Shown here piece by piece: positions 1-58,880 of a stretch of 64,000 bases of DNA. Source of the stretch: Antedon mediterranea (Eukaryota > Animalia > Echinodermata). Position numbers and translations under genes: made by a program. The stretch lies in assembly GCF_964355755.1 (NCBI RefSeq), contig NC_092676.1, positions 20,726,871-20,790,870 on the forward strand, read 5' to 3'. The notes under the pieces are model-generated. The model ran no database searches and had not been told where the DNA came from. It was given only the letters and a program-made list of their open reading frames with translations. Position 1 is the stretch's first letter; every line of letters begins with the position of its first letter.

Positions 1-733
1 CACTTCAACTTGTGAAGGTGCGTCCAAAGAAACAAAATACAGTATAACAATAAAAAAGAGAAATAGCAATAATTATAATTGGTAAAATATTTAGATTTTA
101 ATCCGCGTTTTCCTCTCCATTGTTTAATAACCAATTAATACTAATAATAGGCTGAACATGTGGGACGCTGGTTTGGATCATTTGGAGCTAAGACTATTCG
201 TGAAAGAAATAAAATCGCGTCTGTACATTCATACACGTTTACATTTTTTTTTTTAATCTATGATACTGACAACAATTATATATTTTTATTTTAAAGAAGT
301 TAAAAACATTGTCGTAACATTGATGTTGTTATAAACTCAATAATCATAACTAAACATCTCCATCTATTATACAATACAAACCATACAGTGCAATACAAAA
401 TTAGTATAATTAGTTTTAATGTGTTATTGACCTTCATTGTTATCATGACTCATCTATTAAGCGATTCAACGAATAATGTGCACAAAATAGGACAACATTT
501 TGTATGCCTAATTTTATAATGATATTAAAATATAGGATATATTTTTTTACAAATAACGCTTTAATTTATTAACATTGATAATTATGGTACTATACGCCTG
601 TTGAAGAAGTAAAAAGTGAGTGAAAAAATATAAACTGGTCACATTTCTATACACTGACTTAGTGACTAAGTTAAATACTAAGCGGAAAACATCTAAGTAA
701 AACGATATCTAAACACTACAGCAACTAACACCA

Positions 734-2077
734 TTAATCTGAGTTTGCATGTTTTAGTGCATTCAAAATGTCGATTCGATAATCTCGTTTCCAACTTTCT
801 GCTGAGATGTTGCATATGTGTACAATGCATTCTATGCATTTTCCTTCGATTGATAGCTTTACGTCAAAACGTGTCGCAAAAGCATATCTATCCCCATTTG
901 TTTTCATGCGATAGTCCCAACCGTTACCGAGAAGAAAGTCTAATTGTCCAAAACTTTCTGGCGAATATTCTTCACGAAAGCAGTTACTGGCATTAAGACC
1001 AAATAACTTGGTATCTATGCCCTGTTCGTATAATATACTAAACCGCACTTGCCTTTTTTTGCTTGATAAACCGCGCTGTATCTGTTGGCGTATACACCTT
1101 CTTAATGTAGCTTTTCGCTCTTCATAAGTTGCCTTTGAAATATTAATAAGAGAATTGACTCGTTCTTCGGCTGCTTGAAGTGTGGCACGACGGCGTTCAG
1201 CCCACCTTCCGTTAATTTTTAGCTTAACAGGCTTGGGATTTGTTAGGACTTCGGTAAAGGATCCTACCATCAATAGGTTATATGTTCCCAATTTTCGAAG
1301 TTTGTAACCACGTCCCTCAACAATTCCGTCGTTATTATTGATATGTAACGATGTTAAAAAATGATAAATATCGTCGTCATCGGTTGGTAGAAATGATCCA
1401 ATTGAAACTAGTTCATCTTCTAAAACACATTGTGTAATTTCCTCGCTTTCTTTCGTAGTTCTTTGATGTGACAAATTTGCATTTTCCAACGTTGCTAGAT
1501 GTCGACTATGCTTATTTTTCATGGGTTTTCGTTTACTCTTTTTGTGTTTAGAGCTAGACACTTTTTGTGTTGATGATTGAACATCTTCTAGATTCGGATT
1601 AATATCTTCTTGGTATTTGTAACAACTTAGGACATCACAGTACCCAATAACGATGTGTTTGGTTTCATCACTAAAATCGTAAGATATTTCTAATATTTTA
1701 CGAAAGGGATCGTTGATAAGGACATTGCCCTCTTGTTGTTTCGATTCTAGGTTAAAATTGATTGTATCTCCTTCGACCAAATTCTCATGCTTTACCGTAC
1801 ATCTCATTGGCGCACTCAAGTCATGGACCTTTCTCTTCCGATTTCGCTTACCCAGTTTTTCCATCGGCGTTGTTTTTCGAATGTAATTTGGTAACAGAAA
1901 TGTGTCATGTTTTGACTGCCATCCTTGATAGTGAACACCAAAATGATTACCATCAGGTAATATGTTTATTCCAGTGATAGTTGCGGCTCTCCAAACACCA
2001 CATTCTTCATCCAATACCTCTACATTTTGACCTATGTAAAACTGTGCCATAGAATTCATGCCGCTCTCTTCTTCCAT
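734..2077 (-). CDS. Tudor/chromo-barrel domain protein (447 aa, single coding exon), likely transposon cargo
   Basis: N-terminus FYIGQNVEVLD...WRAATI...FGVHYQGWQSKHDTFL matches the Tudor-knot/chromo-barrel pattern (VHYxGW as in MRG15/PHF20). It is followed by basic NLS-like tracts and a C-terminal domain I cannot name (LDFLLGNGWDYR). Confidence 0.75.
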   Translation of the reverse strand: MEEESGMNSMAQFYIGQNVEVLDEECGVWRAATITGINILPDGNHFGVHYQGWQSKHDTFLLPNYIRKTTPMEKLGKRNRKRKVHDLSAPMRCTVKHENLVEGDTINFNLESKQQEGNVLINDPFRKILEISYDFSDETKHIVIGYCDVLSCYKYQEDINPNLEDVQSSTQKVSSSKHKKSKRKPMKNKHSRHLATLENANLSHQRTTKESEEITQCVLEDELVSIGSFLPTDDDDIYHFLTSLHINNNDGIVEGRGYKLRKLGTYNLLMVGSFTEVLTNPKPVKLKINGRWAERRRATLQAAEERVNSLINISKATYEERKATLRRCIRQQIQRGLSSKKRQVRFSILYEQGIDTKLFGLNASNCFREEYSPESFGQLDFLLGNGWDYRMKTNGDRYAFATRFDVKLSIEGKCIECIVHICNISAESWKRDYRIDILNALKHANSD

Positions 2078-2375
2078 TGTTTAGGTTCCTGTAAATAACA
2101 ATACAGAATAATAATGTTTGGGCAGGAGGATACTTTATAAAAACCCGCATTTATAACACCGTCCAATCAGAAAGCTTCCTGTCTACGGTAATGCGGTTAC
2201 CAAACAATGAGCTTATCACCTGATTAGGCCTACCTGACCGTGATGTAATCAAATGTGGCAATCCCAAGCGTTATAATGTATTTATTTAATATAAATTTAC
2301 AGTAATCAATGTAAGCCTACTAATCGACTTATGAAGAAAGCCGGGTAACGCAAAACTCACAAGATAGGAATATGT

Positions 2376-5300
2376 TTACACCTCGTTAACATTACGCCGA
2401 GCACGTTCGTTCCACACTCTTTGTTGGTCTTCTGGGCAATCTTTCCATAGTTGGCTAAGGGCTCTGTTTCTCTCAATAAAGTTTAGTTCTTGCTGATGAC
2501 GCATTACCTAATATTTAAATAAATTATAATTAATTATAATACCATATTGAAATACCTCTTAAATGTAAGTTGACAGTAACAATTAACGATTACAATAATT
2601 ATATAATAAAAAGCAGTACGCGTATTCAAGGAAGAAATATATTTCTGTATGTTATTAAATTCATAATATTTGTATAGCCTCATACCTAAGGCCATTTTAT
2701 GATTTTTTTTATTGAGTTTCCATTTTAAGTGCAATGAAATCGGTTCAGGAAAGAGTAAACATTGCATTTTTTTCCCCTGATCGGTTATAAACATAGAACT
2801 ACTTGTATTAATAATCATGTTATACCTCCGGAATGTTTTCTTGAACGAATAAGTTATATCCCGACAACCTTCTTTTTTTCACAGGGTTTGGTTTTCTATG
2901 TTTCCTTTTTATTTGGACATTTTGACAAATTTCTTGCATCGGTTGTCTTTGTTGACGTTCTTTTTTCTTTAACATTGTATATGCGCTGGCATCTTTGCTG
3001 TTAAACATAATAACATGATAATCAATTGGTTAAACATAATTATACTGTACGTGGAAAAGTTATCAGCCCGGGAATGTTGTTTAAAAAATGACAACCGACT
3101 CAGTATGCGTTTTGAAAATGTGTGTGTGTGTTATTCGAACCGTATGTTAACTTTTTAGAAAGGATAGAAAATTCAGATTTCAAGATCTGATTCATTCTGC
3201 TCTTAGATGGGTCGTTCCATTATTAAACAGAGGGTAAGAAATCTGAAATACGTTTAGGCCTACTTTAAAATATAGCACTATACCAGGGAAGAGTACGTGT
3301 AATTTCGATATTCTCTGATCTAATTATTTTTATGCTAAAGATAATATTTCTATTAATTAATTTCTTAGCTAATGTAGTAAATTTAATAATTAAATAAAAA
3401 CATTATTCAAATTATGCAAAAACCACCTTGTAATGCATACACTATTTAGGTTGTATTATTTCATAGAGATATTATAGTGAACTATAATATCTCTATGATT
3501 ATATATACTATTTAAGATATATACACTCTGATTAATAATGGAATGATCTATTGGAATGGATAGGTAAAAACCTTAATGAGAAAAAAACACCACTAACCTG
3601 TTATATTGTATAATGCTGCTGTCGGGTACTACCGACTGAATTGTTGTCAAAGGTGCATTCTGAAGTCTGGAAATATTCAATTTATAGTCTTCTAATGACG
3701 TAAAAGTACCCTTTTCAAGATTGTCCAAGATTCCATCACTTAAAATGTCCACACCTCTTCTAAAACATTCGGCCAATGTCGAGGCAACTTTTTTGGGCTC
3801 TCTGTCACATTCTGCTTGTGTTGTTATAACAATAAAATATGTAAGAGGAACATTATCTTTTGGGAGTCCCCTCCACCAATAGCTTCCACCATATTTACTG
3901 ATGATTTCTTTGATGATTTCGTGTTGTTTATACAAGCGTCCCACTATGATGATTGACATGCCTTCCAGAGCATTCGATGTATCTTGAACATTTTGAAGGG
4001 CTGCATTAGATTCATCGTAAATCCCTTGGTCAAGTTCATTGGTGGCATCCGTGTTGTGATCATTGTCCGGTTCGTTTAGTTCGGACTCATTTAGGTCATG
4101 TTCACCCGGATGGTCAGGATTCTCATCTCGATCGTCATACCCTTCAAGAGACATTCTGTTTTGCACGTACGTATTAAAGCGCTCCTGTGCGTCTACTGGA
4201 CACTCACGCATTCGGTGGTGGATCATCTGCCATTGCCATTCAAATATTTTCAGAATTGGATCTTGTTTGGATGATCCACCACCGCGAGTTGTATGTTGAT
4301 AGAACCTACACATGTCCATATAGTGAGAACGTTCCCCCTGTTCTGTAGACAGCCTCATAACGGAGTGAAATGGGTAACTTTGTAGCAACTGAGGGACAAC
4401 ATCGATGAACTTCATTTCATAACCTGTGAATACATTTCCATACTTGAAAAGGATCAAACGATGGAATTTATCGGCATGATTAGTGTATTTAGAAATTTGT
4501 TCATGTCCATGGCCCCACGAATAATCATCCACCGATACACTACCATTCTCTCGTCCTGGGAGAATAATTACAGACTCGTCTCTTAGCATCCTGTACATGT
4601 GAGCAAGATGGTGAAAAATTAGTTGTTGCAGAAGTTTTACACTTATAGATCTGGAAGGCAGATTTAGAATACGCTGAAGATCTACGGGAAGTAATCGCGA
4701 ATGAGGTGTGTCTGGTAAAACATTATCGAATATGTCCGGGAAAGGAACGACATCATATGAAAAAAAGTCAGTAATTGCCGGGTATACAATTAACTGTGCT
4801 GACGGTTTGTTTAAGGTGATCTGTTTAAGTTGGTCATCTTCAAACACTATGTGGAATCCCCCGTCTTTATTTCGGTGAACACCGCGAGCCTTTATATTGT
4901 TGACCAAATGTTGCAGTCGGACTTTGCGTAGAGCAACTCCATTAACTCCCGGAATTAACGACGTGATTCTAAATGGTAGAAATTGTGTTCGTAAAAAGAT
5001 GTATATAAAACACGCTTACTAAAAAAAGTATATCAACATAAATATCAAACACATTTTACACAGCTTTATCTCAGTTTTAAACATTAATTAATTCAATAAT
5101 AATATTGCAAATATTTGCGCGCAGTAGCGTCTCGTTTAAATTAACGCTTGCTTCTTGACGTGACGAATATGGACGCTAAAGCGTTACCGTATTTGTTGTC
5201 TACAATTGTTCAGATTAATTTACAAAATATTTCTAAATTTCTAGTGAAAATGGATGAAAATGTATACTATATTTTGAAGGTACTTACGTATGAATGTCTT

Positions 5301-7626
5301 GTATAACAAGTCGCAACTGGTGTTCAACAATTCGTGTTATACCATGGTCTATACAAATACCAAAGTGTTCAAGTGGCACATCTAACAGTCGATGTGGATG
5401 TACCCTCCCTACTCTTTTTCTTACATCTGATCTTAGTCCACTCTCCTCATCATAAAGCTTATTTTCCTCCTTGATTGTTTCAATATAAATATTGAATCCA
5501 TCGGCGGTTAGTGGTCCTATCTTACCTCCAAGCACAGCATCTTGAAATTTGGCATCCGACGATATAAATATTTTGTGTCCGTGCTCTTGCATGTGACAAA
5601 TCCAATCGTTTATATAATTATTTTTGTCATATCTTAAATTAGATTCGAGATTGGCCCTGTCGTCCCCAAAATAGAAAATTGCCACTCTCCAAAAATCTTT
5701 AGGGCTATGAAATCCTTTACCTTTTAGAGCCTGAACATTATTAATGTTCGTAAGGCCAAACACCGTTGATTGTCGCCTTCCCATTATACGAGCATCGCCA
5801 TATAATCGCCACCACTCTTCACCATCTACATAATGGTACACATACATTAATGCATCATGTAAAGAGTGAGGATCAATAAATATGCCACCAGGTAGAGAAG
5901 TGGGCTTCATGATCCGCTCGAATTCCGCTTTATACTTTTTCTTGAGCACACGCACTTTGTTATTTGCGGCAAATAATCCAGGTAGTCGCTTTCGGAGCCA
6001 CGTTAATGCCTCGACGACATTAGTTGTGTCCTCCAAAAATAGTAAATCGTGTTCATTTATTTGGAGTTGTTTAATTTCATCTCTACAATAGAAATTTAAA
6101 AAGTGAAAGCTCAGTAAGTTATAAATCTGCATCCAGGCACAGGATGGATTAAATGAATGGTTCAATTGTTAACGATGTTTTTAATCAATACGGTATTACT
6201 AAATAGACTACTTGTTGTAATTATACAAAATGTCTTACTTTACAATTTCATCAAAAAGAGATTGTGTGGCATGTTTGGATGATTTGCCCTTTCTAAGGAT
6301 TGTTACTAAATCTTCGGCAGAGAGTATTCCGTCCCATTCTTCATCTGTAGAAGCATTAGAGATGTCCCTATAGACATAAATAAACAGAATTCAATAAATC
6401 ACATTATTGGTCTAAAGTTCGCTTTTCCATTCCTGTCAGATTGTAAAATTTAACTTTAAAAATATCAAAAGAAAAAAATTGCCATTTTCATTTCAAACAA
6501 GTGAACGTCACGTGAGGATTCTATATATCTTAATAATGTGGTGTCATGCCCATGATAGTAATGAATTCTGTAATTATTGTTTTTCAATTTATAAATATTA
6601 AAATACTTACCAAGCTAGTGCATCTAATAGATCTGATTTATCCCCGCCGTGGATATTCGTTGCAATTTTCAATATTTCTTTTCTCTGATCTATATTTCTG
6701 CGGGAAATTCTATGGCCCAACTGTCTAGTTTTGTTTTCTTGTGGTCCATCACCGTTGCCAATTTCATTGTTGTACTGCCTAATCAGGTTGCTTGTTGATT
6801 TTAGTTTATTTTGTACGCGCTCATCTTGTATCATATCTGCGATAGGCATGGGATTGTTGACAACAGATGCGGTGCACTTTTCTATAATAAAGTCACGCAA
6901 TGTGTACAAATTTAACGTATATTCGTCAATATCATCGATGTACGTCTGCAACATAGCTTCCGTATCTCGAAGATGTCCACCACTTAAAATGAGAACGGTG
7001 AAGTACGAAACGCTAAGGTGGGTGCGTTGGCTTTTGTTTTGTGGTAGACTTTCATTGCGCACAACCAATCCGTTTTGATAAATATAATAATCGTACCGTT
7101 TCCATCCTCGATGTTTCTGTCCATTAAACATTCCTAAGAACTTCATAGCATCAGCTACAGCAACATAATAACTCCCTTCTCTTTCACACCCAGGTATATT
7201 ACATGGCCATCCCAGTTGCTCTGTTCCTCTGTACATATTGTTTGGATTATCTGACAGTCAACCCGAAAAAAGAAAGAAAATAAACTTACATTTTACCAGC
7301 TAATTACACTAACAATAACAATTAGGCTATATATTCTCTTTACTATGAAGAAAGTTACAGTACAGAACCCGAACAGTTCTGTAGGAAAATATTGAATTAG
7401 TTAATTAAACTCATACTATAAGGCCTAACAGAGTACTTGACATTAATCTGTAGTTCAGTAACATTAGTATAATAGGCCTAATAGATTTCACAGTAAATTA
7501 CTGACATCTCAGCATTATGTAAATTTAGCATATTGTTAACAGTGTAGGCCTATCTAAATTAGATAAAACGTATATAGTACAGTCTATCATAACTGTATTA
7601 AAATACAATTAAACTTACTTTGGCAT
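2376..7626 (-). CDS. Multi-exon RAG1/Transib-like DDE transposase with C-terminal BRCT-like and HMG-box domains (~1088 aa)
   Basis: GT-AG exons with compatible phases: 7626-7619, 7378-7359 (these two tentative), 7250-6611, 6367-6239, 6082-5288, 4968-3598, 2997-2826, 2507-2376; total 3267 nt, open. Motifs YGDAR, SSDAKFQDAVLG, CIDHGITRIVE, TGYEMKFIDVVP and STEQGERSH occur in RAG1-core order. LEGMSIIIVGRL...IISKYGG is BRCT-like. RRLSGYNLFVQE...LSQLWKDCPEDQQRVWNERA is an HMG box. Confidence 0.72.
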
Positions 7627-8340
7627 CTTTGTCTTGAATTAAATATAATGGTTGAGAAGTATTATAACGCGGCTTTCACAGACTTTCACTGGAAAGGACT
7701 GAAGAGAAGAGAATGTTCGCGCCAAAATTTGCAGGAGTGGTGTGAAGGTTATCTCAATGTACTGTACAGTACATTAGTCTTCGCCTTAGGGAGTTGTTTG
7801 CCTTGATTTTAAACACTTTTCAATATGTAATATACCCCCCTTTCTACATAGGCTTTTTATTTACTTAATTCATATACATAAAATACTAAGGCCAATGTAT
7901 TACATTTTGCTTGTAGTTTTTAACGACTATATAAGACGTCGATCTTCACAAATTCTCCCGGGCCTGATACCTCTTTACCTCCAGACGTGTATCTCACTTA
8001 TACGCCTTTGGTTTTTGTTTTGTTTATATTAAATTGTACCTTATTTCTTATGTTTGGTAGCCTTTTGAGTTTCGCCGCTCTTAATTATAAATTTTCTTTT
8101 TCACAAACTCTGTACATAGAAAAGAAAAGAGAAATAAATGTTCTGAAATTAAATGAATAAATGAACCAAAACAACCAACCAACCAACCGCCTCTCACCCC
8201 CTTTCCACCCTCCCACCCAAAGACCTCGCATTCGGGAGATTTTGATTTCGATACTTGAGTAAAAATACCGGTTATTTATATATTATATATTTATATTATT
8301 ATATATCCCATTACCCTAGAAACCACAACCCCTCTAACTA

Positions 8341-8735
8341 TTTGAAAAAAAGTGTGCTATCCATTTTAAAAAGTGTGCTATCCATTTGAAATAGCGTGCT
8401 ATCCATTTGAAGAAAGTGTGCTATCCATTTGAAATAGTGTGCTATCCATTTTAAAAAGTGTGCTATCCATTTGAAATAGCGTGCTATCCATTTGAAGAAA
8501 GTGTGCTATCCATTTGAAATAGCGTGCTATCCATTTGAAGAAAGTGTGCTATCCATTTGAAAAAGTGTGCTATCCATTTGAAATAGCGTGCTATCCATTT
8601 GAAATAGCGTGCTATCCATTTGAAAAAAGTGTGCTATCCATTTGAAATAGCGTGCTATCCATTTGAAAAAAGTGTGCTATCCATTTGAAGAAAGTGTGCT
8701 ATCCATTTGAAGAAAGTGTGCTATCCATTTGAAAA
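8341..8735. repeat. Tandem array of ~18 copies of a 21-22 bp unit (TTTGAAaaAGTGTGCTATCCA / TTTGAAATAGCGTGCTATCCA)
   Basis: Directly visible; invariant GTGCTATCCATTT core, with about three unit variants alternating. Confidence 0.97.
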
Positions 8736-9411
8736 ATTAAATTGATTAAATAATCACTGTATATAATTAAGTTTTCCAAGTTGCTTCTTAAATGTAATTT
8801 ATCTCAAATAGTAGGCTGCATGTTGATGAAGACGATACTGATAAAAAGCTCTTCTCTTCTCATTTTAATAGTTCTTTTGAAACAATGGCACGAAACTATA
8901 GTTTTTAAAGTGATTTATTTGATTTGATTTATTTCGAAATATCCATAAATATATAAATATACAATACAATTTGATAAAACAAGAGACGGCAAGTACCAAA
9001 TAATCTTACATAGGCCTATAGACAAAAGAAATGGATTTAACAAGGATAACACACAAAAAAAAAATTAATTAAACTTTTGAATGTTAATTGTGATGGTAAT
9101 TAATGAGTATTTATAAAGAAGTTTTTTGAAAGAAGAGTACCGGAAATAGTAAAATTACCTAATCAGTACTGATACAGAACATCCTTTGTATTAATTAGGG
9201 CTACGTCCCAGGGATCCCGAAATTAATAAGATAGACAATACAAACAACTGAATAAGAAAATAAACCGATTTTACGCATGACCGGATAATTGCGGTCTGTT
9301 TTTGATCTAAAGAAGTCGTTCATAACACGGTAAATGAATGTTAATTCCAATCAGGCCGCATTTTAACATGGATTGCATTGGTGCATTGTAGCTTAATCTA
9401 AGAACATCAAC

Positions 9412-10974
9412 ATGAATGTCTCCGATGGTAGTATACATGCAGAAATTTTAAAGAATTTTGTACCTGGAAAAAAGTTTGATAAAGTTCCAGTATCTGTTGT
9501 GAAAGATTTTCTGAGTCAAAAATACCCACATATTACTACAAATCAGAAACGCGGACGTCTTTTTAAACAGGCTTTTGCTAAAGTAGGCCATTCAATTCGA
9601 CGAATGAGACCTGGATCGAGGAAAGGAAGAAGTGAAACATGTTATTATTATGTTCGTAAGCAAGTCGTCATAACCGAAGATAATGATAACGTTGAGGATG
9701 AGCGACAATCTGCTGTAATGGAAACAGATGAGAAACAGGCAAAGGAAATAAATGAAAAAAGAAAAGCAGAATATCTGAAGCTTAGACTAAACCAAGAACA
9801 GGAGATGCGATGCCAAGCTATACAGGAATTGACCAAAATAAAACCAAATTCCTATATTCACATTCCACGAATAGACAGTCGTCATTTAGTTGATTTGAAG
9901 AAAACAATTGGGAATGGGTCTTTTGGATGTGTGCAGCTTTATCGGTATCGTAAAGATAATGTAGCTGTAAAAACATTTAAAAATTATGAAGGCCTCAGTG
10001 ATCACAAGCTTAGAGAGGCAATATTTCGAGAAGCAAATATGATGCTTTCGTTTATTCCTCATCCCAACATTGTCAAATTTTTAGGATATATTGTGTCTCA
10101 TTCAGCCAAGAACATATCATTAGTGACGTTGTTTGTTGACGGGAAAACACTAAGTTCACTTACTAAGACGGCAAGGAATCATCCTGAAAAACGCGGTAAG
10201 AACTGGTATTAATTTAATTTTTGTGGCTTTTATTTGATTTTCTTTACTATTATATGAAAACAATGCAAGTATAAATAACCTGATTTTTAATATTTTATTT
10301 TAATATAATTTAGGTCTACCCTGGACAGCAATGATGAAGCATGTAGCGGAGGGCTTGATTGCCCTTCACGAACAAAATATCATTCATAACGACCTAAAAG
10401 AAAACAACATTGTAATTAGAGAAGCAGACTACCGTGCAGTAATTATAGATTTAGGTATACCGTTTTAGGTTTGTGTTGTTTTAAATGATATAAATATTGT
10501 GTGCCTCTATACTACAGTAGGCTTATATCATGTTTTTAACAAAATATTGATAATAATGTCGTGGCAAATTTTCGACAAAAAGCCAATGAATGATGGGCGG
10601 GGGACGGGATGGCGACACAATTCAACCACTGACCAGATAATACTCGAATATTCTTTTTTTTGACAGGCAAATCGACATTCGCAGATAAACCTAAATGGAA
10701 TAAATACAGTTTAGGGTCTAAGCAATCTATTGAGGAATATAAGAAGAAATATCCGTGGATAGCGCCTGAATTAATTGAGGACAAGGTTCTCCCGTCTTCA
10801 TTTACCGATTGTTATTCCTTTGGTTTTGTCTGCAAATCGGTATATATACACACGCATTCCAATGACATTATACTTCAACAAATATGGGAAGCCACATATA
10901 GATTAATTAATGATCGTTATGATTTGTCCAGTATAATGCAATATTTTAATTCTGTTACCATCAACAATTGTTAA
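9412..10974 (+). CDS. Protein kinase (~410 aa, 3 exons) with RFX-like winged-helix N-terminus and coiled-coil linker
   Basis: Exons 9412-10195, 10314-10454 and 10667-10974 join in frame. Kinase motifs: IGNGSFGCV, VAVK, HPNIVKFLG, HNDLKENN, IDLG, WIAPE, DCYSFG. N-terminal GRLFKQAF...RRMRPGSRKGRSETCYYYVRK resembles the RFX GKLIRxVF...RRLGTRGxSKYHYYGIR segment. Confidence 0.85.
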
Positions 10975-12372
10975 CAGATAATGCATCTTTTTTGGGTGTA
11001 GGCTGTAACATGGATTAAATTCTTTAATCCATGGCTGTAATGAGCTAGCCTCAAGGTCTGTGTAAATTCTTCAAGTCAAAGGTCGCACACTGTCTTAACA
11101 TTATTTGTATTTAATTATTTCTCCATTCATTTATGAAACATTAAACCATTACTGTAAAGTTTATAAATAAAGATTTTTTTTATTTTTTGCTGTGGGAGAG
11201 TTGGTGTCTGAGAGAGACCAAATAAACTAAAAAATTGCCGTCCTCATTTTTTCGGAGCTTGTTTTATATTAACAATAAATGAACATGAACAAATATAGAA
11301 TCTTAATGGCTTTTTTTTTTTGGTTTGTTTTATATTTTATATCATATCAAACTTGTATCAGTGGACCCTCATGTGATTGTAGGCCTAAATCGATTGTGTA
11401 GACATACAAATAGCAGTATCTGAGCATGCGTAAATAATAATGTTCTTAATACCAGGGAGTTGTTATTAGTACAGTACTCGTCGTCCAAACCATTAATGAT
11501 AATAGCTACTTTGTAATAATAATTGATTGGTTTATCAGCAAAAAAGCATGAACCATGGAGGAAAAAATCAAGATCAAACGATGCCAGTGCACCTAAAAGT
11601 GACTCCAGTCAATTGCGAACATAGGCCAAGTTAATCACGGCGATGCCGGGGGTTTCCGCTATTTCTATGAAGTAGCCTAAACCTAGGCCTAAGCCTGCAT
11701 CTATCATCTTTATAAACTCCATTATTATTATTATTATTTGAAGAATTACATGCCTTGACCAGGGAATTATAAAATGTATAGGTCCATGTTTTGACGACAC
11801 ACAAAGTAGCACATTACAGTAAGATAATAATGACGTAAATACTATTAAGTAACTTTCTTGGCCGTCATTGGATAATTTTAGGAAGTACGTCCTACTCACT
11901 CAGTCACTGCTCTATTTACAAATGAAGGGTTCTAATTGGTCAGCTAACAGCACACTGCTTGAGGCAGTTTAAATTCTCCTTGAAACCGTCCATAAAACAC
12001 GCCATTACTCATACATCTGTCGTACCGCTAATGACCGAAAACCTCACTTTTTGGGGTTTTCAAACGTAACGCTATCCGGGGCTCCTGCGCCTAATGAATT
12101 TATTGTACCCGATTAAACCATATAAATTAAAGAAAAGACCATTTCAACGAGAAAACCATTCTCTGTCTGAAATTCATACATAGGTTTTTGTTAATTTTAA
12201 ATCTTATTTCCTTTTTTATAAAGAAAACTACAAAATGACATATTCAAAGTTTGATTGTATGCATCTTTAATTTTCATATTTTGGGATCTTTAAATTAACT
12301 ATAATTTAAAATGTTCAAATGTACCAAAGTACATGAACTTATATGCATTTTTTATTTGTAACTTAAACATAC

Positions 12373-13159
12373 CTTCTTTTTTGTATTTTAGTAACACTAG
12401 TTGGAATCCTGAGAGGAGCTAACAATGCAGTTGGTGACCCTGGGCTTGTTTCTTGGTTGGCTGTGTTCAGTGGATTTGCTTTGTATTGACTCTGTACATA
12501 GCTTGTTGCTACAGATAGCATCCCCAAAATGGCCGCAAGGACACAAACAAATATTATTGCACCAAATAACTCTAAAAATAGATACATCAAGAATAAGTAT
12601 TTTTGACATACATTACAACAAAACATCATTGAAACCATGGAGAGGTATAAAATATGTTGAAACCAAGCTTCCTGTATGTACATGGCTTGTTGCTACAGAA
12701 CATCCCCAAAAAGTCTGTTGTATTGTGTCACATTGTGATGTCATTATTGTTGCATGCTCTACAACTTCCTGGTAAGTAAATACAGTATGTAACTTTCTAT
12801 TGAGCCTAAGATTCTCAGTGCAATTCAGTATCGGAGAGAATATTATACAAATAATGAATGAGTTGAATGGGAAGAATATATAATGAGTTGAAATATTGAC
12901 TGTTATACTTTCAATGAATGGACATGTTCTAAATTAAACTTTTATTCAACTAACCCGCTGTTTTTTGGTACACGGAAAAAAATACTACGACCATTTAATA
13001 GTGCATATTATTGCATGCCATGTAACCCACAATCGTCAAATCAAATTACAGGAATTATTTAGGTGTTATATAATATATTTTACCTCCTGCTGTTTCTATC
13101 ATCCAACTCTTAAATAAGAATTGACCAACATCTGCTGAGAAGTAGAATGACATGTGCAT
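12373..13159 (-). CDS. Copper transporter, SLC31/CTR family (5' coding exons only)
   Basis: Exon 13159-13084 (MHMSFYFSADVGQFLFKSWMIETAG, typical CTR MxMxFYF...LF..W) splices in phase to exon 12571-12373 (ELFGAIIFVCVLAAILGMLSV..., TM1). No MxxxM/TM2-3 exon was found in the window. A probable upstream exon ends at the donor near 15427. Confidence 0.8.
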
Positions 13160-13189
13160 CTAAAAAAAAGAAAGAAAGTTAATAGTAAA

Positions 13190-13800
13190 AGACCCCTTCC
13201 CTGCAATTTTGGACGTTTTTTGGAAAATAATTAAACATTAAACCATGTCATTCCTTGTCTTAAATGTACGTTTTGTGGTAAATTATGATAAAAAGTGAGA
13301 AACAATGCACTACCTAAGTAGCTCGCGGCGATCGACCTCTCGTGGAGGGTCTTAGGCCTAGCCTAGCTAGGCTTAGTTTTGTAGGCCTAGCTGGTAAACA
13401 TCGGTAACGTACGAACATCGTACGCTACCTATATACCTAGCCTGACGTTGTATAGTTGCTGCATTAATTGTATTTCTATTTTTGCCAGACTCCGTTGATA
13501 CAAATTGGGGAAAACCCGGTATTTTCGCTGAAAAGTTAGGAGTCTTCCATTTGTTTTGGCCTCACGATCGATCGAAAAGTGGGCGAATTACAGGTGAAAA
13601 ACAAAAATATCAATCCGCGCGCAATGCATTTTGGGATTTATAGCGGGCCGCTATAATTATTAGAATCGACTTATTTTTCACATTTTTAACCGTTTAAAGA
13701 CGAAAAAAGTTATCGCAATAGGACCATATAGTATTATTTTTACATTAAATATAGTTTGTGATCTTAAAATTAGATCTAAAAAACGTAGGGAATGGGGCTT
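13190..13800. mobile_element. Non-autonomous DNA transposon (Kolobok-like, ~610 bp), copy 1
   Basis: Imperfect TIRs AGACCCCTTCCCTGCAATTTT / AAAACGTAGGGAATGGGGCT, flanked by TAAA/TTAA; near-identical to 14475-15100 in reverse orientation. Confidence 0.85.
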
Positions 13801-14474
13801 TAACTTACTGTACTCCATTCATGTTTCCGTACAATTACTGTACACTATATTTTGCATTTAATACCCACTTTTAACGTCAATCCTAACCATCAATTCACAA
13901 ATTTTGTGGTTGATGGTACAGTAAGTGACATGAAACAAACAAAAATTAACTTCATGTGGATATACAGAACCTTGGTAGAACATTTAAAGACAAGTATTAA
14001 TATAGGAGTAACAAAAATACTGTACTAAGCTTGAAACCTGCTTAATTGTAATGATATTGAATACAGTAATTAGATTACATTTATAATGAGTTCTGCACCA
14101 CGATGGTTTATTTTTGCTGGTAGTGGTACTACAAAAACAACTCAATAGCCACGTCTTATTTTAGAATTAGATCTACAGGTCAAATATTGTATATAGTTTT
14201 GATTTTCAAATTTATTATAAAAAATGGTACTATAAGACATACTGAAAGGAAACATTAAAACCCATTTTCTGTAACTGTTTTTTCATTGTAGGGAAATCAT
14301 TTTCTGAAATAAAATTAATCAATCAATAATAATATATTAATAATGATTATATAAAGGCAGATGAAACAAATAGCAACATTGGTTCTCTCATTACAAAAGT
14401 AACAACTTTACACTCACCATTTTTTGGTGGTGGTTCCTAAAAAGAAACTTTTGTAAAATTTTCTATTTATTTAA

Positions 14475-15100
14475 AGCCCCATTCCCTACGTTTTTTAGAT
14501 CTAATTTAAGATCACAAACTATATTTAATGTAAAAATAATACTATATGGTCCTATTGCGATAACTTTTTTCGTCTTTAAACGGTTAAAAATGTGAAAAAT
14601 AAATCGATTTTAATAATTATAGCGGCCCGCTATAAATCCCAAAATGCATTGCGCGCGGATTGATATTTTTGTTTTTCACCTGTAATTCGCCCACTTTTCG
14701 ATCGATCGTGAAGCCAAAACAAATGGAAGACTCCTAACTTTTCAGCGAAAATACCGGGTGTTCCCCAATTTGTATCAACGGAGTCTGGCAAAAATAGAAA
14801 GACAATTAATGCAGCAACTATACAACGTCAGGCTAGGTATATAGCTAGCGTACGATGTTCGTACGTTACCGTTGTTTACCAGCTAGGCCTACAAAACTAA
14901 GCCTAGCTAGGCTAGGCCTGAGACCGTCCGCGAGAGTTCGATCGCCGCGAGCTACTTAGGTAGTGCATTGTTTCTCACTTTTTATCATAATTTACCATAA
15001 AACGTACATTTAAGACAAGGAATGACATGGTTTAATGTTTTTAAAGTGATATATATGTATTATTTTCCAAAAAACGTCCAAAATTGCAGGGAAGGGGTCT
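14475..15100. mobile_element. Non-autonomous DNA transposon (Kolobok-like), copy 2, inverted relative to copy 1
   Basis: TTAA-AGCCCCATTCCCTACG...TGCAGGGAAGGGGTCT-TTAA; AG termini with TTAA target. Confidence 0.88.
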
Positions 15101-15544
15101 TTAACAAATTTAAATAGGCCAATAATATATTTAATTATCAAATGACACAGTTCCGTCGATGCACAGCATTGTAGAAGCATATTCTTTGTCCCGGCTATGT
15201 TGTCCAGAGTTGCGTAACGGTAACAGTCAATTGTAATCTTGGACCGGGCCCCTGTCTGCTTCTCTCTGGAAATGGGGGTACCTGGCCTAGATAGAGATAG
15301 GCCTAGGCCTAACTTCTAGGCCTAGGATCAGTTTTTTTAAACCGAAATTAGAACACAAGTATCAAACCAACCTAGTTGAAAACTACTGAAATTAAACTAT
15401 GTCATATAATCTAAATAAAGAACTCACGATTACAACATAGAATCCTTACGATTGCAATAAAATTAGATGTAAAACTGGGTCTACCCAGCAGCAACAAAAA
15501 CGCTGTTGTTGTTTTCTTCTGATCTTCAGCATGTGATGTTAAAT

Positions 15545-15556: not shown

Positions 15557-16126
15557 CAGAAAATTACGGACACCGAGTTCGTGTTTTCACAGGGGATGTT
15601 TGACATAAGATTTGACATAAAAGTACTGTAAGTATAATAATAATATAATTTTTAATAGGTATAGCATCTAGTAGACATATAACTAATAGTTAGGCATAAT
15701 ATGATTGAACAAATAAACCAGTTTTACCACAGTCTATGCTAAGAAGCTAGGCCAGGCCTAGCTAGCTAGGCCAGTCACTGTCGCAGAGGAAGAGTCCTGC
15801 TGGACGTTGTCTCGGCAGTGCTCGGTTAGTGCAGGCGCAGTCATCATCAGGCCTAGGCCTAGGCTAGAATTTATTATTATTATTCATAATAAAACTAGCA
15901 CAGATTATTAACTAGGCCTACCTATGCTATGCATAATAGACAATGGTAATTCACTCAAAATTATTTAGAATTTTATTTTGCTTTAATTAGGCCATAATTA
16001 TTATATTAATTAATATATTAATTATTATTAACATCATGGACCATGGTCTAGTTTGGATCCGATAGGCAGTGCAGAAACAGTTACTGTACAGTAGGTAGGA
16101 ATGGGCATACTGATGTAAGCGGAGTA

Positions 16127-18425
16127 TGGTCGAAGCGGCCGCCAACCAAAGCGGCCGCCAGTTTAATATCGTCATTTGTATGGAACGCCATGTGCGCTTT
16201 AATCTTTGATTGCCGTTGTCAACGCCATGGCCTATGGCGAGTTGAGTTACAGCTAAATAAATATAAGCCAACTCATGTACTATCAAATCTTTATATTTCT
16301 ATAATAATTAAGTTTGCCTGCCGATAAATCAATGTATATTTTATTTGTATTTACTATTAACTAATACATATATCGAAATATATTTTGCCGAACCTTTATA
16401 TCTCGTTTACATACTATTGAATCCTTATACAGTATTGCAATAATAATTTACGTATACGATATTGCCGAATCTTTATATCTCGTTTATATACTATTGAATC
16501 CTTATACAGTATTGCAATAATAATAATTTACGTACGGTATTGCCGAATCTTTATATCTCATTTACATACTATCGATTTTTATACAGTATTGCAATAATAA
16601 TTTACGTACGGTATTGCCGAATATTTATATCTCATTTGCATTTAACTATCGAATTTTATACAGTATTGCAATAATAATTTACGTACGGTATTGCCGAATA
16701 TTTAAATCTCATTTACATTTAACTATCGAATTTTATACAGTATGGCAATAATAATTTACGTACGGTATTGCCGAACCTTTATATCTCATTTACATACTAT
16801 CGAATTTTATACAGTATTGCATTAATAATTTACGTACGGTATTGCCGAATCTTTATATCTCGTTTACATACTATCGAATCTTTATACAGTATTGCAATAA
16901 TAATTTACGTACGGTATTGCCGAATATTTATATCTCGTTTATATACTATCGAATCTTTATACAGTATTGCATTAATAATTTACGTATACGGTATTGCCAA
17001 ATCTTTATATCTCGTTTACATACTATTGGATCTTTATACAGTATTGCAATAATAATTTACGTACGGTATTGCCGAATCTTTATATCTCATTTTTACATAC
17101 TATTGAATCTTTATACAATATTGCATTAATAATTTACGTACGGTATTGCCGAATCTTGATATCTCATTTGACATACTATCGAATCTTTATACAGTATTGC
17201 ATTAATAATTTACGTACGGTATTGCCGAATCTTTATATCTCGTTTACATACTATTGAATCTTTATACAGTATTGCATTAATAATTTACGTACGGTATTGC
17301 CGAATCTTTATATCTCATTTTTACATACTATCGAATCTTTATACAGTATTGCATTAATAATTTACGTACGGTATTGCCGAATCTTGATATCTCATTTACA
17401 GACTTAATCAAATCTTTATACAGTGTTGCATTAAATAATAACTTACGTACGGTATTGCCGAATATTTATATCTTGTTTACATACTATCGAATCTTTATAC
17501 AGTATTGCATTAATAATTTACGTACGGTATTGCCGAATATTTATATCTTGTTTACATACTATCGAATCTTTATACAGTATTGCAATAATAATTTACGTAC
17601 GGTATTGCCGAATATTTATATCTCATTGACATACTGTACTATCGAATCTTGGTTTTTATTATTAGTAATAGTGTGTGTTATACATTTAAGTGTTATTCCA
17701 TTGTAATACATTGTTTGTGTTTTCAATAAAGCAACATGGGACGCCCACCTAATGTGCAGCAGCACTATTGCTGGCCGTCAGTCGAGTTATTAGCAGAAAT
17801 TCGCGTAATTAATTACTGTATCAAACAGACACTTTCATCTTATTTTAGTATTTAAAACTCATTTTCAATTGATCAATATTTAAATATCTGAAGTAATAAA
17901 ATAGTGTAGGATATTAAATAAATTGCTGTCATCATGTTATTGTATTAAATTATGATTGCGAACACTACTATAGTTACTTTACTAATTAATTAATATACAA
18001 TAACAAATATTTTTAATTATTAATATATTTATATATTTTGATATACTTTATTGATTGGTTTATTTATATATAATTCCTAATAATTGGCTTATTATTATAT
18101 TATATTAATATACAATATAAACACCACAATGTATTTTATAGACTTTATTAAACATATGTATATCATTTAGAACAGTTAAAATAAGTAATCATCGATTCGC
18201 CATTTCGTTTAAAAGAACGTACGCGTATCACATTCAATCTGTAAAAAAAAAGAGAATAAATTACATAATAATGTAGATTGTTATTTACGTCCGAGGTAAA
18301 GAAAACCTGTCGAAACAATGACAATCAAAGATTACAAAACAACGACAATCAAAGCGCACACGGCGTTCCATACAGATTACCGTTATTGAACTAGCGGCCG
18401 CTTTAGTTGGCGGCCGCTTCGACCG
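16127..18425. mobile_element. Non-autonomous TIR element with TA target duplication (Tc1/mariner-pogo-like), ~2.3 kb
   Basis: TA-TGGTCGAAGCGGCCGCCAACCAAAGCGGCCGC... and ...GCGGCCGCTTTAGTTGGCGGCCGCTTCGACCG-TA; imperfect inverted match over ~90 bp. Confidence 0.85.
16380..17650. repeat. Minisatellite with ~79 bp unit, about 16 copies
   Basis: Unit TATTGCCGAATCTTTATATCTCGTTTACATACTATCGAATCTTTATACAGTATTGCATTAATAATTTACGTACGG repeated; explains the repetitive ORFs here. Confidence 0.96.
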
Positions 18426-18670
18426 TAATCCATGTAAGCCTGTATATATAATAAATTTAAGAGTGTGAATGAACATAATTATTATAATATTAATAGCAAT
18501 CTGCAAGTTTATAAACTTTTTTTGATTACAGGTAAAGTGCAATGAAGTTGATACCCGAAATGCTGACATCTAATTAATTTAACAACAATTTCGAGAGTTG
18601 GTGTGTCGCCAACACAAAATTCAAGAGGTCATAATTATTTTAACATACATGGTAGTCTGTTGAAATAAGT

Positions 18671-28714
<10,044 letters not shown>

Positions 28715-39438: not shown

Positions 39439-42400
39439 TCAAACAATTCTACATCTATCTGAAACTAAACGAATGGTTCGACTTTTATTTAATGCTGTTA
39501 AAAGTTCGTATTCGGCTGGCATGTGGTGATTGGTGGTATAATTCAGTGTCCTGTTGTCGTAGTAATGATGTTTTAACGGTTTGCCACTCGGAGATTTATA
39601 AAATGGATAAAAACCATATAACGAAACATATTGACACATTGACCCAGCTGCTGTATACATGATTAACCCCAGAGATGGGTTTCTTATTTTCCAAAATCTG
39701 AAAGAAAAGTCATTTGTTGTAGGCTATGAAGAAAATTATATTTATGCATGCATAATTTAATGTGCTGATGATGTCAATTTATTCCTGTTATCTTTAATTA
39801 TGTTCATTTTCAGTATGCATTATTATTATTATTTTACTCGTTGAACATTCTTGTAAGAAACGTTAAATCCCCAGCTCAAATCCACTGTCTTACAAAAACG
39901 GAAGTTAATGAAAGAATAGTAAGATTAAGATGATACTTACTTTGTAACTAGTGGTAGCATACCTCGGTACGAATATACAATTCTAACTGTTAAATTATTC
40001 TGTTTGATACCTGCTACAAGATTATGTGCGTAGCTTATATTCTTTTCTGCGTTCAATTTAGAAATCCATATATATGTGTCATTAAGCTCTTTAAACGTGT
40101 CGTATGAAGTTTTGTAGCAACTATTTGAAGTGTTTGTTAGACATATACTGCTTTCGATACTGGCGGCCCCATTGAGCACCATCATATCTATTTTACCACC
40201 AACGTCTTGTTCAAAACCAATAGTTTGTGCAAGATTTCCTCTAAAAACAAAGTCGTGTTCATCTATTTCACGTCCACAATTGCTGTTTAGTAGATTACCA
40301 GCACTGCCTACAACTGCACAGGATCCTTGCAGAGGAATACTGTCGATACCTTCTGGTAATTTTGTCATTCGTTTGTTCTGTTTGAAGCCATCTTTGTAAA
40401 TTAGTGTTAATAGAGACGGTTTAAATCCAGCCTTCTGAAGTCGTTTTCTTTAATAGAATACAAACTTATAAATTCTGGGCTTATAATTGATTTAAAAAAA
40501 CTCTAGACAGGCATGTTCGAATTCAGTATGAGGCATATGTATACTTTTTGTTCTATTTCGTGAGAACAAACCACTTTTATTTCATTCAAACCACCGTAAA
40601 TTTTACATGTAAAATCAGTATTCAAAAAAGTAATATAGCATATGCATACTAAAAACTCTCTAATATTATTATTATGAAAAACAATTAAGGAAGAATTTTA
40701 GCATTTGCCCTTTATATTTTTCAAATTTCCCTAAATTTAGACTTCGAATATGCCATTTTACAGTTTAATAAAGTCATTCCCACTTAAAATAGATGAAATA
40801 AACGGTTAAGTTTAACCAAAACCATAGTGTGACAGACAATTTGAATATTATTCGTTTAGTAATCATAATAATAATATTCTCTCTGAGCCAATATGCTGCT
40901 TTCATTGTATTTGTTTGTGTCATTATTATTAATGAATCCGTATCTTGTAAAAAGTACACCAAGATCATTGTATTATATTATACAACTTATATAGAAATTC
41001 AACAGTTTGTATTTATATACAATAAATGTTTCGTCACCAAATCTGATTTTAATTGGTGTAGAATTCTTTCAAGTCTATCTGAAAGAGTAAAGCTCTGTTT
41101 GGTATTTGCTATTTAAGCAGAGACCATGCATACATTTGTGGTGGCAGAAATTAGATGATCAAAAGAAGGCTGCAATAGGCGGGGTAGAAAAAGAAAATAG
41201 ACATATATAGTCAAGTTCTATTTGATATGATAACTAGGAAGGTATAATGCCACCGTGTATTATGATCAGTGAAATGATTACCGTATCCAGTAAAAACGAA
41301 AGCAAAACTTACCTCATATCTAATGCTTTGCTTTCTTTAATGTGATTAGTCAATACTTTCCTACAAACAAAATCATAGGTTAAAATTATAATGGATACAC
41401 ATAAACTAAATACTCTTTTGATAAGAAGTAATAACTAAGATTATGGTACTTATCGGAAAGTTTCGTTTTGGCAGCTCCCTACCAATTAATTTCATCCGGC
41501 AGTGTGCTAATTTTAAATTTTTTAAACCACGCTAAAGACTTCTTTTCGAAGTGTCTTAATTTACGGTTATTATACATTACATCATACATCTTAATGTTGA
41601 CATTTCCTACTTTTTCCAGCTTGCTTTGTTCGCTTATATAAATGCGACTCTTGTTTATATATATAAAAGTATCTCTTCGGAGATCCCGCCTGCGATTTTT
41701 TTTTTCGTAATTAAGTTGGGAACCCCCTTATGAAACGTCACAAAATAAACATGAATAATTCATCAGTTAAATTTTCTTGTTCCGTGTGCACCCAAGCGTA
41801 TAGCAACAAGAAGTGATTATACACAAGTGCGGTACGATTCTAGGCCTATCTCCGCTGTGGTTGCCGCGTGGGATTTCATAAAAGAATAGCGGCGTTTTGT
41901 CAGGGGCGGATCCAGGATTATTTTTGCGGGGGTGGGGGGGGGGGGGGGGGTGGCACACGCGATCGTAGAGAGAAAATGGGGAAAGCCCAGAAAAAAATGC
42001 ATTTTATGGTGTTCGAGATCACTAACGCACTCTGATTCGATCATCTGTAAAGGGTCTTGCACAACTCTTCACAGTTCCAAACTTCAGGGTGGCGAAAGTA
42101 TTTTTCCCAAAGACTTTCTCTGAAAATCCGAGAGAGGGCGTCATATTTCGTCCCATTGTGTAGGGGGAGCATTATGCATCTCTCTGCGCTCGCCTTTTGA
42201 ATGAACATTTTAATATGCTGCGCTTTCCGAATGAATTGCCGATTCTTACAAAGGGAGGATATCGCCTTGTTGTAGGCCTAACTACAGTACGTATACGCCT
42301 TTTTCACGAAACGGAAGACATCTTCGATCGATGACAAACAATGCCGTGCAACTAAGCGTAACCAACAGAAATAACATAACGTTTTCAGGGGATTTCAGGA

Positions 42401-57300: not shown

Positions 57301-58880
57301 AAAGCACATTAATGAAATTGATTCTCATAAGGCTTCAGGTAATGATGGTCTAAGTAATATTGTTTTGTCTTTAGCTGCCAAACCTCTTTCTTTCCCTTGT
57401 AAAATTTTATTTGAAAGATGCATTTCTGAGAAACGTTTTCCGATAAAATGGAAGCAAGCTAACGTGTGCCCTATCTTTAAAGCTGGTTCTAAATCTGATG
57501 TACGGAATTATAGACCGGTTTCATTGTTGCCAACTATTTCTATTTGAAAAAATTGTTCACGACCAAATTTTTAAACATATATCACCAGTTATTAGTGACC
57601 ATCAACACGGATTTTACCCAGGGAGGTCTTGTGAAACAAATTTGTCTGTTCTGTTGTCACATGCGTATGACGCAATAAATGCAAAAGGGCAATGCGAAGT
57701 TGTATATACAGACATGGCTAAAGCCTTTGACAGGGTCTCCCATAAGTTACTCTTGTTCAAACTACAACAATTTGGTCTAAATCACGATTTAATTTTATTT
57801 TTTACAAGTTATTTATCGGACAGGTTTCAGAGAGTCACTTTTGATGGTAACACGTCTGAATGGCTTCCAGTTTTATCTGGCGTGCCTCAGGGGTCGATTT
57901 TTCCTTTGTTCCTCGTCATTCTAATGTTCTTATGTTTGCTGACGATATTAAATTATTTAAGTCTATACAAACCTTAAATGATATGTTGTTGTTACAAGAA
58001 GACGTTGACAGACTCATTCACTGGTGCGACACTTGGAATATGTCAGTCAATGCCTCCAAATGCAAATCAATGTCTTTTACTCTTAAGAAAAAACCCATCT
58101 ATTTTGACTTTTATATTAAGAATATTATACTTGAAAGAGTCTCTGTTCACAAAGACCTTGGTATTTTTTTAGATAGTTCATTAACTTTCTGTAAACATAT
58201 TGATTTTATAGTCTCTAAATGCAATAGACTTTTGGGTTTTCTTTGGAGACATTGCAGACATATTAACGATAAAAAGGCATTAGTTATTTTATACAAATCT
58301 TTAGTTAGGTCGAATCTTGAATTCTGCAGTGTTATTTTTAACTCTATTTCTCTTGCCTAGTCTTCTAGATTACAAAGTGTTCAGAACAAGTTTTGTCGAT
58401 TTTATGTGCGTAAATTTGGTTCTATTAGCAAAGACGTTCTTATTAATTTAGCGGGTAGGCGTAAGTTATTTGATTTAATTTTTCTTTTTAAGGCTGTGAA
58501 CTCAATTTTCCATGGTAATTTTGAAGTGTACTTTCCTATTTCTGTTCCACAATATCAATTGCGTAATCCTGCTTTATTTTCTATATCAAGAGGGAGGGTA
58601 AATATTACTAAAAATGGTTTTGTTAATCGTTTGCCTAAGTTATACCACTCACTATGAAAAATTGATGGATCTGTTGATGTTTTTTTTTTATTCCCTTGCT
58701 TGTTTCCGTCACAAGGTTTTGTCTAATGTCAGTAATATTTAAATGTTGTCTTGTTATCTATTGATTTTTGCTTGTATATAATATGTTATATTTTACGACT
58801 TTCAACCCTGTTAATGGTGACGTTTGGTCACTGTAGGGTGATGATGAAATAAAAAAAAAAAATAAAAAAAAAAAAAACAC
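54369..58880 (+). mobile_element. Frameshifted LINE (CR1/L2 group) with 2A-like peptide
   Basis: APE (LTETW, GGGV, YRPP, GDFN, SDH) and RT (YRPVSLL, DMAKAFD, GVPQGS, FADD) split across frames 55555-58657; 3' hairpin 58806-58840; poly(A) to ~58877; possible TSD GTAAAATACAGT at 54357-54368 and 58882-58893. The 5' boundary is tentative. Confidence 0.9.
55246..55511. mobile_element. MITE inserted upstream of the LINE ORF
   Basis: TAGAGAGGTTTCGCAAC..TACGAATAC / GTATTCGTA..GTTGTGAAACCTCCCTA inverted ends; partial tandem duplicate at ~55190-55245. Confidence 0.7.

Follow-up and report, generated by a model that had tools for sequence, protein, structure and literature searches.

In the crinoid Antedon mediterranea, an HMG box is fused to the C-terminus of a transposase, judging from the window (the 64,000-nucleotide stretch of DNA analysed here) and from related sequences, and the fusion is not peculiar to the window copy. 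The core of the enzyme is predicted to adopt the RAG1/Transib fold, and a BRCT domain lies between core and box; the novelty is this combination of HMG and BRCT domains on a RAG fold. We put a probability of about 0.55 on the reading that this is a cut-and-paste transposase of the RAG1/Transib fold whose BRCT-HMG tail includes a box that grips bent transposon DNA and keeps it stable during cutting, within the complex. Four features had escaped the original prediction from this DNA: the family-wide extent of the fusion, the BRCT domain in front of the box, the lack of zinc motifs and the second gene that accompanies the transposase.

Gene structure and splicing

The transposase gene occupies six exons on the minus strand between 7236 and 2376, with GT..AG at all five introns and 1,074 codons free of internal stops. 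Exon 1 (6611..7236, residues 1-208) opens with an ATG at 7236, the same methionine start as in the homologue P0001, and ends at a GT donor; it encodes an N-terminal region without a known family followed by an NBD-like helical region, and the alignment of the relative P0007 with RAG1 begins at residue 405, in the NBD region. Exon 2 (6239..6367, residues 209-251) is bounded by AG and GT, in frame and in agreement with P0001. Exon 3 (5288..6082, residues 252-516) holds the presumptive catalytic residues D348 (5796-5794) and D428 (5556-5554) as well as a C-x2-H motif (C495/H498) whose histidine recurs in 28/29 aligned rows. The third presumptive catalytic residue, E729 (4334-4332), is in exon 4 (3598..4968, residues 517-973), followed by an acidic linker and the BRCT domain (about 3977-3675, residues 848-948), recognised by a fold match in P0001 and by Pfam in relatives. 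Exon 5 (2826..2997) encodes a basic linker, with 14 K/R against 2 D/E in 37 residues, and HMG helix 1 (2879-2826; Ser1019, Tyr1021, Asn1022). Exon 6 (2376..2507) supplies helices 2 and 3 (Phe1041 at 2480-2478, Trp1052), the tail NVNEV and the stop codon.

The original prediction that the last two exons join in frame into an HMG box is borne out by this open model, and the junctions 3598/2997 and 2826/2507 fall exactly where it had placed them and are canonical on the minus strand. Intron 4 has the donor AG/GTTAGT at 3598 and the acceptor AACAG/C at 2997 (phase 2); intron 5 has GAG/GTATAA at 2826 and TTAG/GTA at 2507 (phase 0). Its placement of the stop directly after RARR was wrong, as the protein is five residues longer and ends ...RARRNVNEV, with TAA at 2378-2376. 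The sole close named homologue, the NCBI model of Anneissia japonica LOC117099831 (P0001; 65% identity, 674/1,040), is joined across both junctions and ends abruptly in the loop after helix 1; a frameshift test on its tail was not significant (73/500 shuffles). In the loci L010 and L016, with cores ~39% identical or more, both introns lie at the identical position and phase: the phase-2 exon starts compare as S-K-E-I-S-G-F and S-K-D-A-S-A-Y and the phase-0 exon ends as E-K-L-K-E and E-N-I-P-E, and the next exon comprises helices 2 and 3. Another locus, L001, is 95-98% identical to L016 (L016:2330-7092) but without four of its GT-AG introns, and the family is therefore spliced; the HMG exons lie outside the stretch compared. 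L001 itself would be a spliced transcript or a retrocopy of a family member. In DNA contigs of one sample, possibly the one behind the assembly, there were zero differences from the window across the exons.

Under an alternative that we rate as quite improbable, the last two exons are unused or irrelevant in the window copy, either because transcripts stop in intron 4 or because the copy is a decaying or host-tamed remnant. The read-through frame into intron 4 does meet a stop at 3573, paired ends were not found in the window, the box of the closest homologue is truncated, and one possible RNA run covered scattered pieces with no junction, a pattern that says nothing for or against expression. 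The six open exons with canonical sites and an intact DDE triad argue against it, as do the conservation of both introns in relatives whose cores are about 39% identical and the splicing indicated by L001 (HMG exons not reached). The four closest single-ORF relatives without a tail (P0003, P0004, P0006 and P0057) stop at the intron-4 position, as expected from gene callers blind to introns, and the same DNA sample contains a second copy, about 90% identical and with internal deletions.

Intron 4 also contains a 38-bp near-perfect palindrome (3461-3498); in the DNA contigs of the sample this repeat reaches a very high copy number, with depth far above that of the gene and many loose ends.

The HMG box in the window and across the family

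A Pfam scan of each exon alone, the kind of check proposed in the original prediction, matched consecutive parts of HMG_box_2, positions 3-21 (E 0.024) and 25-60 (E 0.052), with both scores below the curated cut-off. A PDB sequence search with exons 5 and 6 each alone matched no HMG protein. We obtained a far stronger match with a profile built solely from seven relatives, picked by eye for HMG-like tails, which scored the spliced model at 35.9 bits (E 8.6e-10, 64 positions) and ranked the acceptor at 2507 first among 140 downstream AG acceptors (42.7 bits versus at most 12.7 in 1,000 shuffles). A profile from 23 relatives, mainly of a divergent HMG type, gave the window model just 8.9 bits (E 0.18). 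Several relatives carry the fusion independently of any splice prediction: L007 encodes the core, an IQ-like motif and an HMG box (family profile E 3e-9; Pfam HMG_box E 0.031) in a single 1,539-codon ORF, and intronless relatives have core, BRCT and HMG in one ORF. Pfam HMG_box adjoins the core above cut-off in P0052, P0045, L002 (E 2e-14), L013 and L005. Together, the relatives-only profile, the single-frame relatives and these above-cut-off matches uphold the claim of an HMG box fused to the transposase. The predicted model of the relative P0007 contains the three-helix, L-shaped HMG fold, with Z 7-8.9 to many HMG boxes over 60-67 aligned residues; Abf2p was best (Z 8.9, rmsd 3.0, 64 aligned), and pLDDT in this region was 84-96.

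A search of 1.84 billion representatives (clusters at 50% identity) returned 291 relatives at E 0.001 or better, 150 of which were listed; named sources among the matches listed are a crinoid, the sea cucumber Holothuria leucospilota and the hemichordate Glandiceps talaboti. Among 57 relatives scanned with Pfam, 31 had a BRCT domain and 4 an HMG box, and the family profile found BRCT in 46/150 listed relatives. Of these 46, 28 extend at least 85 residues beyond the BRCT domain, and 28/28 long tails beat 200 shuffles against a leave-one-out HMG profile, that of P0001 marginally; 18/46 are shorter and end ahead of the possible start of a box. The boxes come in two types, a canonical one, to which the window copy belongs, and a divergent one with a weaker HMG link (P0073 Pfam E 4.7e-4; NHP6A E 0.29). 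In the core tree the two types fall on opposite sides of a 100/100 branch (9 rows unlabelled, outgroup-free). Such a division of the types along the tree makes the core-HMG fusion look old and fits a single event. In L003, which has inverted ends on both sides, the HMG box was undetected and the transposase frame is broken. Pattern searches for relatives in viral contigs gave 137 and 162 matches, none of them confirmed.

Some long members have further domains. P0005 (164-443) has an N-terminal ubiquitin match (E 7.5e-9), and the N-termini of P0030 and P0032 have weak deubiquitinase-like matches (UCH_1, Peptidase_C98, Josephin). An IQ-like motif lies between core and BRCT in many long members and is absent from the window copy.

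A predicted RAG1/Transib fold

Sequence comparison placed the core in no transposase family. No Pfam transposase family, including KDZ, matched the window ORFs, P0001, P0002 or the 57 relatives scanned; KDZ structures were also absent from the fold lists, and phmmer of exons 3 and 4 against the PDB gave 0 hits. Family-profile matches to a TAL-repeat protein and to albumin were weak and were treated as chance; otherwise just HMG and BRCT matched. The Atlas gave RAG1 clusters at 0.75-0.77, which served as a lead. In the predicted models of two relatives, P0001 (mean pLDDT 82) and P0007 (about 33% identical to the window protein), an RNase H fold with a RAG1-type insertion domain is present. The P0001 model matched RAG1 with a Foldseek E of 4e-10 (Z 21.6, rmsd 3.5, 417 aligned), HzTransib with Z 20.1 (rmsd 4.4, 407 aligned), ProtoRAG with Z 19.5 and the P element with Z 12.2, at 10-14% sequence identity to the RAG1/Transib-type structures; its BRCT region matched the MDC1 BRCT (Z 11.7, rmsd 2.5, 96 aligned). 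In a search of 48,161 representatives, the P0007 model combined in one chain a RAG1 core (Z 20.1, rmsd 7.4, 470 aligned), a BRCT domain (Z 8.5) and the HMG box. These models predict a RAG1/Transib fold for the core and support the comparison with RAG made in the original prediction.

D348, D428 and E729 are invariant in 29/29 aligned long members, and from their order and the predicted fold we infer that they are equivalent to the RAG1 triad. The second D and the E are 292-309 residues apart in the family (29 rows), versus 206-214 in Transib and 253 in RAG1 (PMC1131882; this and the other papers named here by accession or DOI are cited for the available part of their text). A CxxC motif between these two residues occurs in 0/29 rows and H(3-4)H within 45 residues of the E in 1/29, which suggests that the zinc site has been lost in this transposase family.

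The resemblance to the RAG1 core and to ProtoRAG BbRAG1L (PDB 9jpu, 6cg0, 4wwx, 6b40) extends over ~420 residues of predicted fold (Z 19.5-21.6), starting with the dimerisation domain and ending with the CTD, and includes the DDE triad, the preceding NBD-like region and a second gene beside the transposase. In contrast to these enzymes, with which a sequence-level match is absent, the window family is missing the ZnC2/ZnH2 ligands, has no visible N-terminal RING or zinc fingers, and bears a tail of BRCT and HMG domains where those enzymes have CTT/CTT*. Its second gene is MBT/Tudor-like and, unlike that of RAGL, has no kelch or PHD match, its C-terminal domain being compared by sequence only. 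With Transib (HzTransib, PDB 6pqx) the family shares the predicted fold, the DDE triad and ends beginning CA; it differs in being twice as long, in having a second gene, in having neither C(2)C nor H(3-4)H, and in ends that read CATTAC/CATGAC rather than CAC, with no 5-bp target duplication seen in L010 and L003. A further comparison is with the CMCT clade, which comprises EnSpm/CACTA, Mirage, Chapaev, Transib, Plavaka and ESTA as well as Lanisha (Kojima 2025, PMC12730594). The window family resembles this clade in its RAG1-like core and in the 5'-CA..TG-3' ends of relatives, but shows neither the C(2)C nor the H(3-4)H motif that, in the available text, is common to all described lineages. By fold the enzyme would therefore be RAG/Transib-like, yet by these membership criteria it would stand outside the described lineages, and the family may form a third branch beside Transib and RAGL that is visible by structure only.

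According to the original prediction, HMG boxes also occur in Zisupton/HMGXB3. The available parts of PMC12477816, PMC5753468 and PMC12730594 do not mention an HMG-box link to Zisupton, and in the literature covered, which leaves Repbase and subscription journals outside its scope, no paper describes an HMG box or a BRCT domain on a transposase of the RAG1-like or Transib kind; a Repbase name may exist. Related families of uncertain link to RAG, and the loss of the RAG transposon in crinoids, have been reported (10.1101/100735). Repbase aside, a zinc-free RAG-fold lineage with built-in BRCT and HMG domains appears to have no published description, including in the available text of 10.64898/2026.01.24.700457. 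Such a lineage would stand next to Transib and RAGL as a third branch of the family that gave rise to the antibody-gene recombinase, and it would allow a test of the need for a zinc site thought to be common to all CMCT enzymes.

A second gene and the ends of the element

Downstream of the transposase, on the same strand, a second gene (734..2077, minus strand, 447 residues) encodes an N-terminal MBT/Tudor/chromo-barrel-like domain and a conserved C-terminal domain without a known family. Its Pfam matches, MSL3_chromo-like (E 0.0057) and Agenet (E 0.0087), are both below cut-off; a profile of the second-gene family matched the PHF20L1 Tudor domain (E 5.5e-4) as well as L3MBTL3, whose repeats summed to E 3e-7. 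All matches were MBT/Tudor-like, with neither kelch nor PHD, and the Atlas gave no usable feature match. Homologues adjoin the transposase in L003, L007, L010 and L011 (4/19 loci, many of them short), where the two genes lie tail to tail, versus head to tail in the window, and in A. japonica a homologue is on apparently the same contig as P0001. The gene was not found in L002 and L014 within the 4.6 kb and 1.8 kb, respectively, available downstream. We consider it likely that the second gene is part of the element, whose two-gene layout presumably resembles that of CACTA. A sea-cucumber gene model (P0090, 1-330) joins the second-gene domain and the transposase core in one protein, either as a real fusion or as a merged annotation.

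The ends of the element are best seen in relatives. Inverted repeats enclose transposase and second gene in L010 (48 nt, 90%) and L003 (47 nt, 81%), both with 5'-CA..TG-3' termini, and the ends of L003, L010, L011 and L016 start CATTAC or CATGAC and not CAC. Over 7.7 kb, L010 and L011 share 99.9% identity, and they diverge one base beyond the inverted repeat; near-identity at different flanks is a sign of recent movement and suggests that active family members exist. No target duplication was found in L010, and a 2-bp match in L003 may be chance; these contigs may join different copies. No bipartite signal of the RAG type was seen in the relatives' ends. ORFs lying outside the element end (L005:155-1303 on the minus strand, L017:2264-3382 and L016:1745-2260) look, by eye, like other transposases and a RecQ-like helicase fragment.

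In the window, a weak candidate 5' end (11013..11042, minus strand) starts CATTACAG, like the relatives' ends, and continues into a short hairpin; the 8-mer at this end occurs 5 times in the 64 kb. It lies just beyond an intron-containing protein kinase gene in divergent orientation (9397..10974, plus strand; Pkinase E 2.1e-11), a homologue of which was found in 0/19 related loci (tblastn, E 1e-3). The candidate end at 11042 had no matching partner within 1-9000, no inverted pair was found between 1-800 and 8200-13200, and no target duplication of the window copy was found. Neither the window start nor the end consensus of protostome RAGL had a match above chance in the vicinity of the element, whose other end may be situated ahead of position 1. 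A 21-22 bp unit, repeated in tandem about 18 times (8334..8736), lies between the genes for transposase and kinase.

A proposed role for the tail

The residues of the box bear on how it might bind DNA. A profile of canonical boxes placed SOX/SRY behind HMGB1 (E 5e-17), TFAM, Abf2 and NHP6A; SRY alone gave E 5e-7. The Ser/Asn position in helix 1 is read as a specificity mark of HMG boxes; in the window box it is occupied by Ser1019, in SRY by Asn. The intercalation site in helix 1 holds Asn1022, where HMGB1 box B has Phe and TFAM box B has Asn, and at the start of helix 2 the window box has Phe1041, where HMGB1 box B has Ile; this second site is hydrophobic in 7/8 aligned relatives. All HMG boxes that bind DNA have at least one of their two intercalation sites occupied by a non-polar residue, here Phe1041, and an intercalator in helix 1 marks all sequence-specific boxes; TFAM box B, without both intercalators, is unable to bind duplex DNA alone (PMC2691818). 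Because of this pattern of Ser1019, Asn1022 and Phe1041, the window box looks non-specific and structure-selective. In HMGB1 box A the helix-2 Phe is likewise the only intercalator, and that box prefers pre-bent DNA (PMC4498601); by this likeness, a grip on pre-bent DNA is more probable for the window box than strong bending. The likeness to HMGB1 box A consists in the HMG fold, a non-intercalating helix-1 residue and Phe at the helix-2 site, and that to TFAM box B in the fold and the helix-1 Asn. This Asn counts against the proposed grip on DNA, as it is also behind the failure of TFAM box B to bind duplex DNA alone, though TFAM box B is without the second site too. Unlike both, the window box is single, tethered to an enzyme by a basic linker and without an acidic tail.

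RAG uses HMGB1/2 for bending its signal DNA, as the original prediction had stated, and requires HMGB for its long bipartite signals (PMC6941560); the lack of any such signal among the ends seen in relatives counts against the parallel. The ProtoRAG reaction mix contains HMGB1 (PMC8289069, methods). It is plausible, by analogy, that the fused HMG box replaces host HMGB1 in cis. In the mechanism that we favour, a dimer would pair both transposon ends, as the fold suggests, and cut by nicking and hairpin formation in the manner of RAG and HzTransib (PMC6941560, PMC6900584). The box, binding without sequence specificity, would insert Phe1041 alone into the minor groove much as HMGB1 box A does, with the basic linker assisting its grip on DNA. 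The dimer would supply two such boxes, and a pair of boxes puts a kink of 85 degrees into DNA (PMC4498601). The fused box would in this way do the architectural job that host HMGB1/2 does for RAG, and it makes the role of the HMGB cofactor in a RAG-type cutting complex testable within one protein.

The same tail could instead act later, capturing bent target DNA or holding the broken donor ends and recruiting repair, with no role in end pairing. Transib/RAG insertion needs a target DNA bend of 120-170 degrees (PMC12337333), a substrate suited to a box-A-like preference for pre-bent DNA. BRCT and HMG co-occur across the family, and the family BRCT profile matches repair and replication proteins, among them RFC1 (E 9e-4), ligase IV and PARP4. 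Yet this BRCT resemblance is a generic one and no observation ties the tail to target DNA. A late role is compatible with, rather than exclusive of, the grip on bent transposon DNA; as an explanation of the tail in its own right we think it unlikely. The box might also be a sequence-specific reader of the ends, in place of CTT*, the C-terminal zinc-binding tail by which RAG1L proteins of invertebrates recognise their inverted repeats (PMC7204232). It lies C-terminal to the core, the position of CTT*, and single-box HMG proteins are often sequence-specific (PMC2691818); the two HMG types follow the core tree, as expected of an end-reading domain, although kin share labels and the tree pattern is therefore no proof of co-evolution with the ends. 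Ser1019 and Phe1041, however, are residues of non-specific boxes, the helix-1 intercalator is missing, and about 230 residues including the BRCT domain separate core and box, all of which makes an end reader improbable.

Beyond the gripping of bent transposon DNA, a wider picture can be drawn, which we consider possible but doubtful: the family may be an undescribed, old, zinc-free RAG-fold lineage that is self-sufficient, with a built-in HMG cofactor, a repair-type BRCT domain and, in the second gene, a methyl-histone reader that steers the element to chromatin. The MBT/Tudor-like domain would there take the chromatin-steering role of the PHD finger of vertebrate RAG2.

Other features of the window

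A 1.9-kb element at 13185-15105 resembles a MITE or foldback element, with inverted arms of about 580 bp (98%) and no large ORF. At 16121-18431, inverted arms with GCGGCCGC pairs flank an array of about 77-bp tandem repeats. From its translation, 23337-26294 holds an intact 985-residue ORF for an endonuclease and reverse transcriptase, and a second, broken LINE-like copy lies at 55501-58360. Exons of a kinase gene at 18656-20573, which we take from the translation to be CDK8-like, mark an animal host locus. Three near-identical exons on the minus strand (39937-40449, 47711-48166 and 62249-62830) form a tandem duplication and presumably belong to a sialyltransferase-like gene, judging by their translation.
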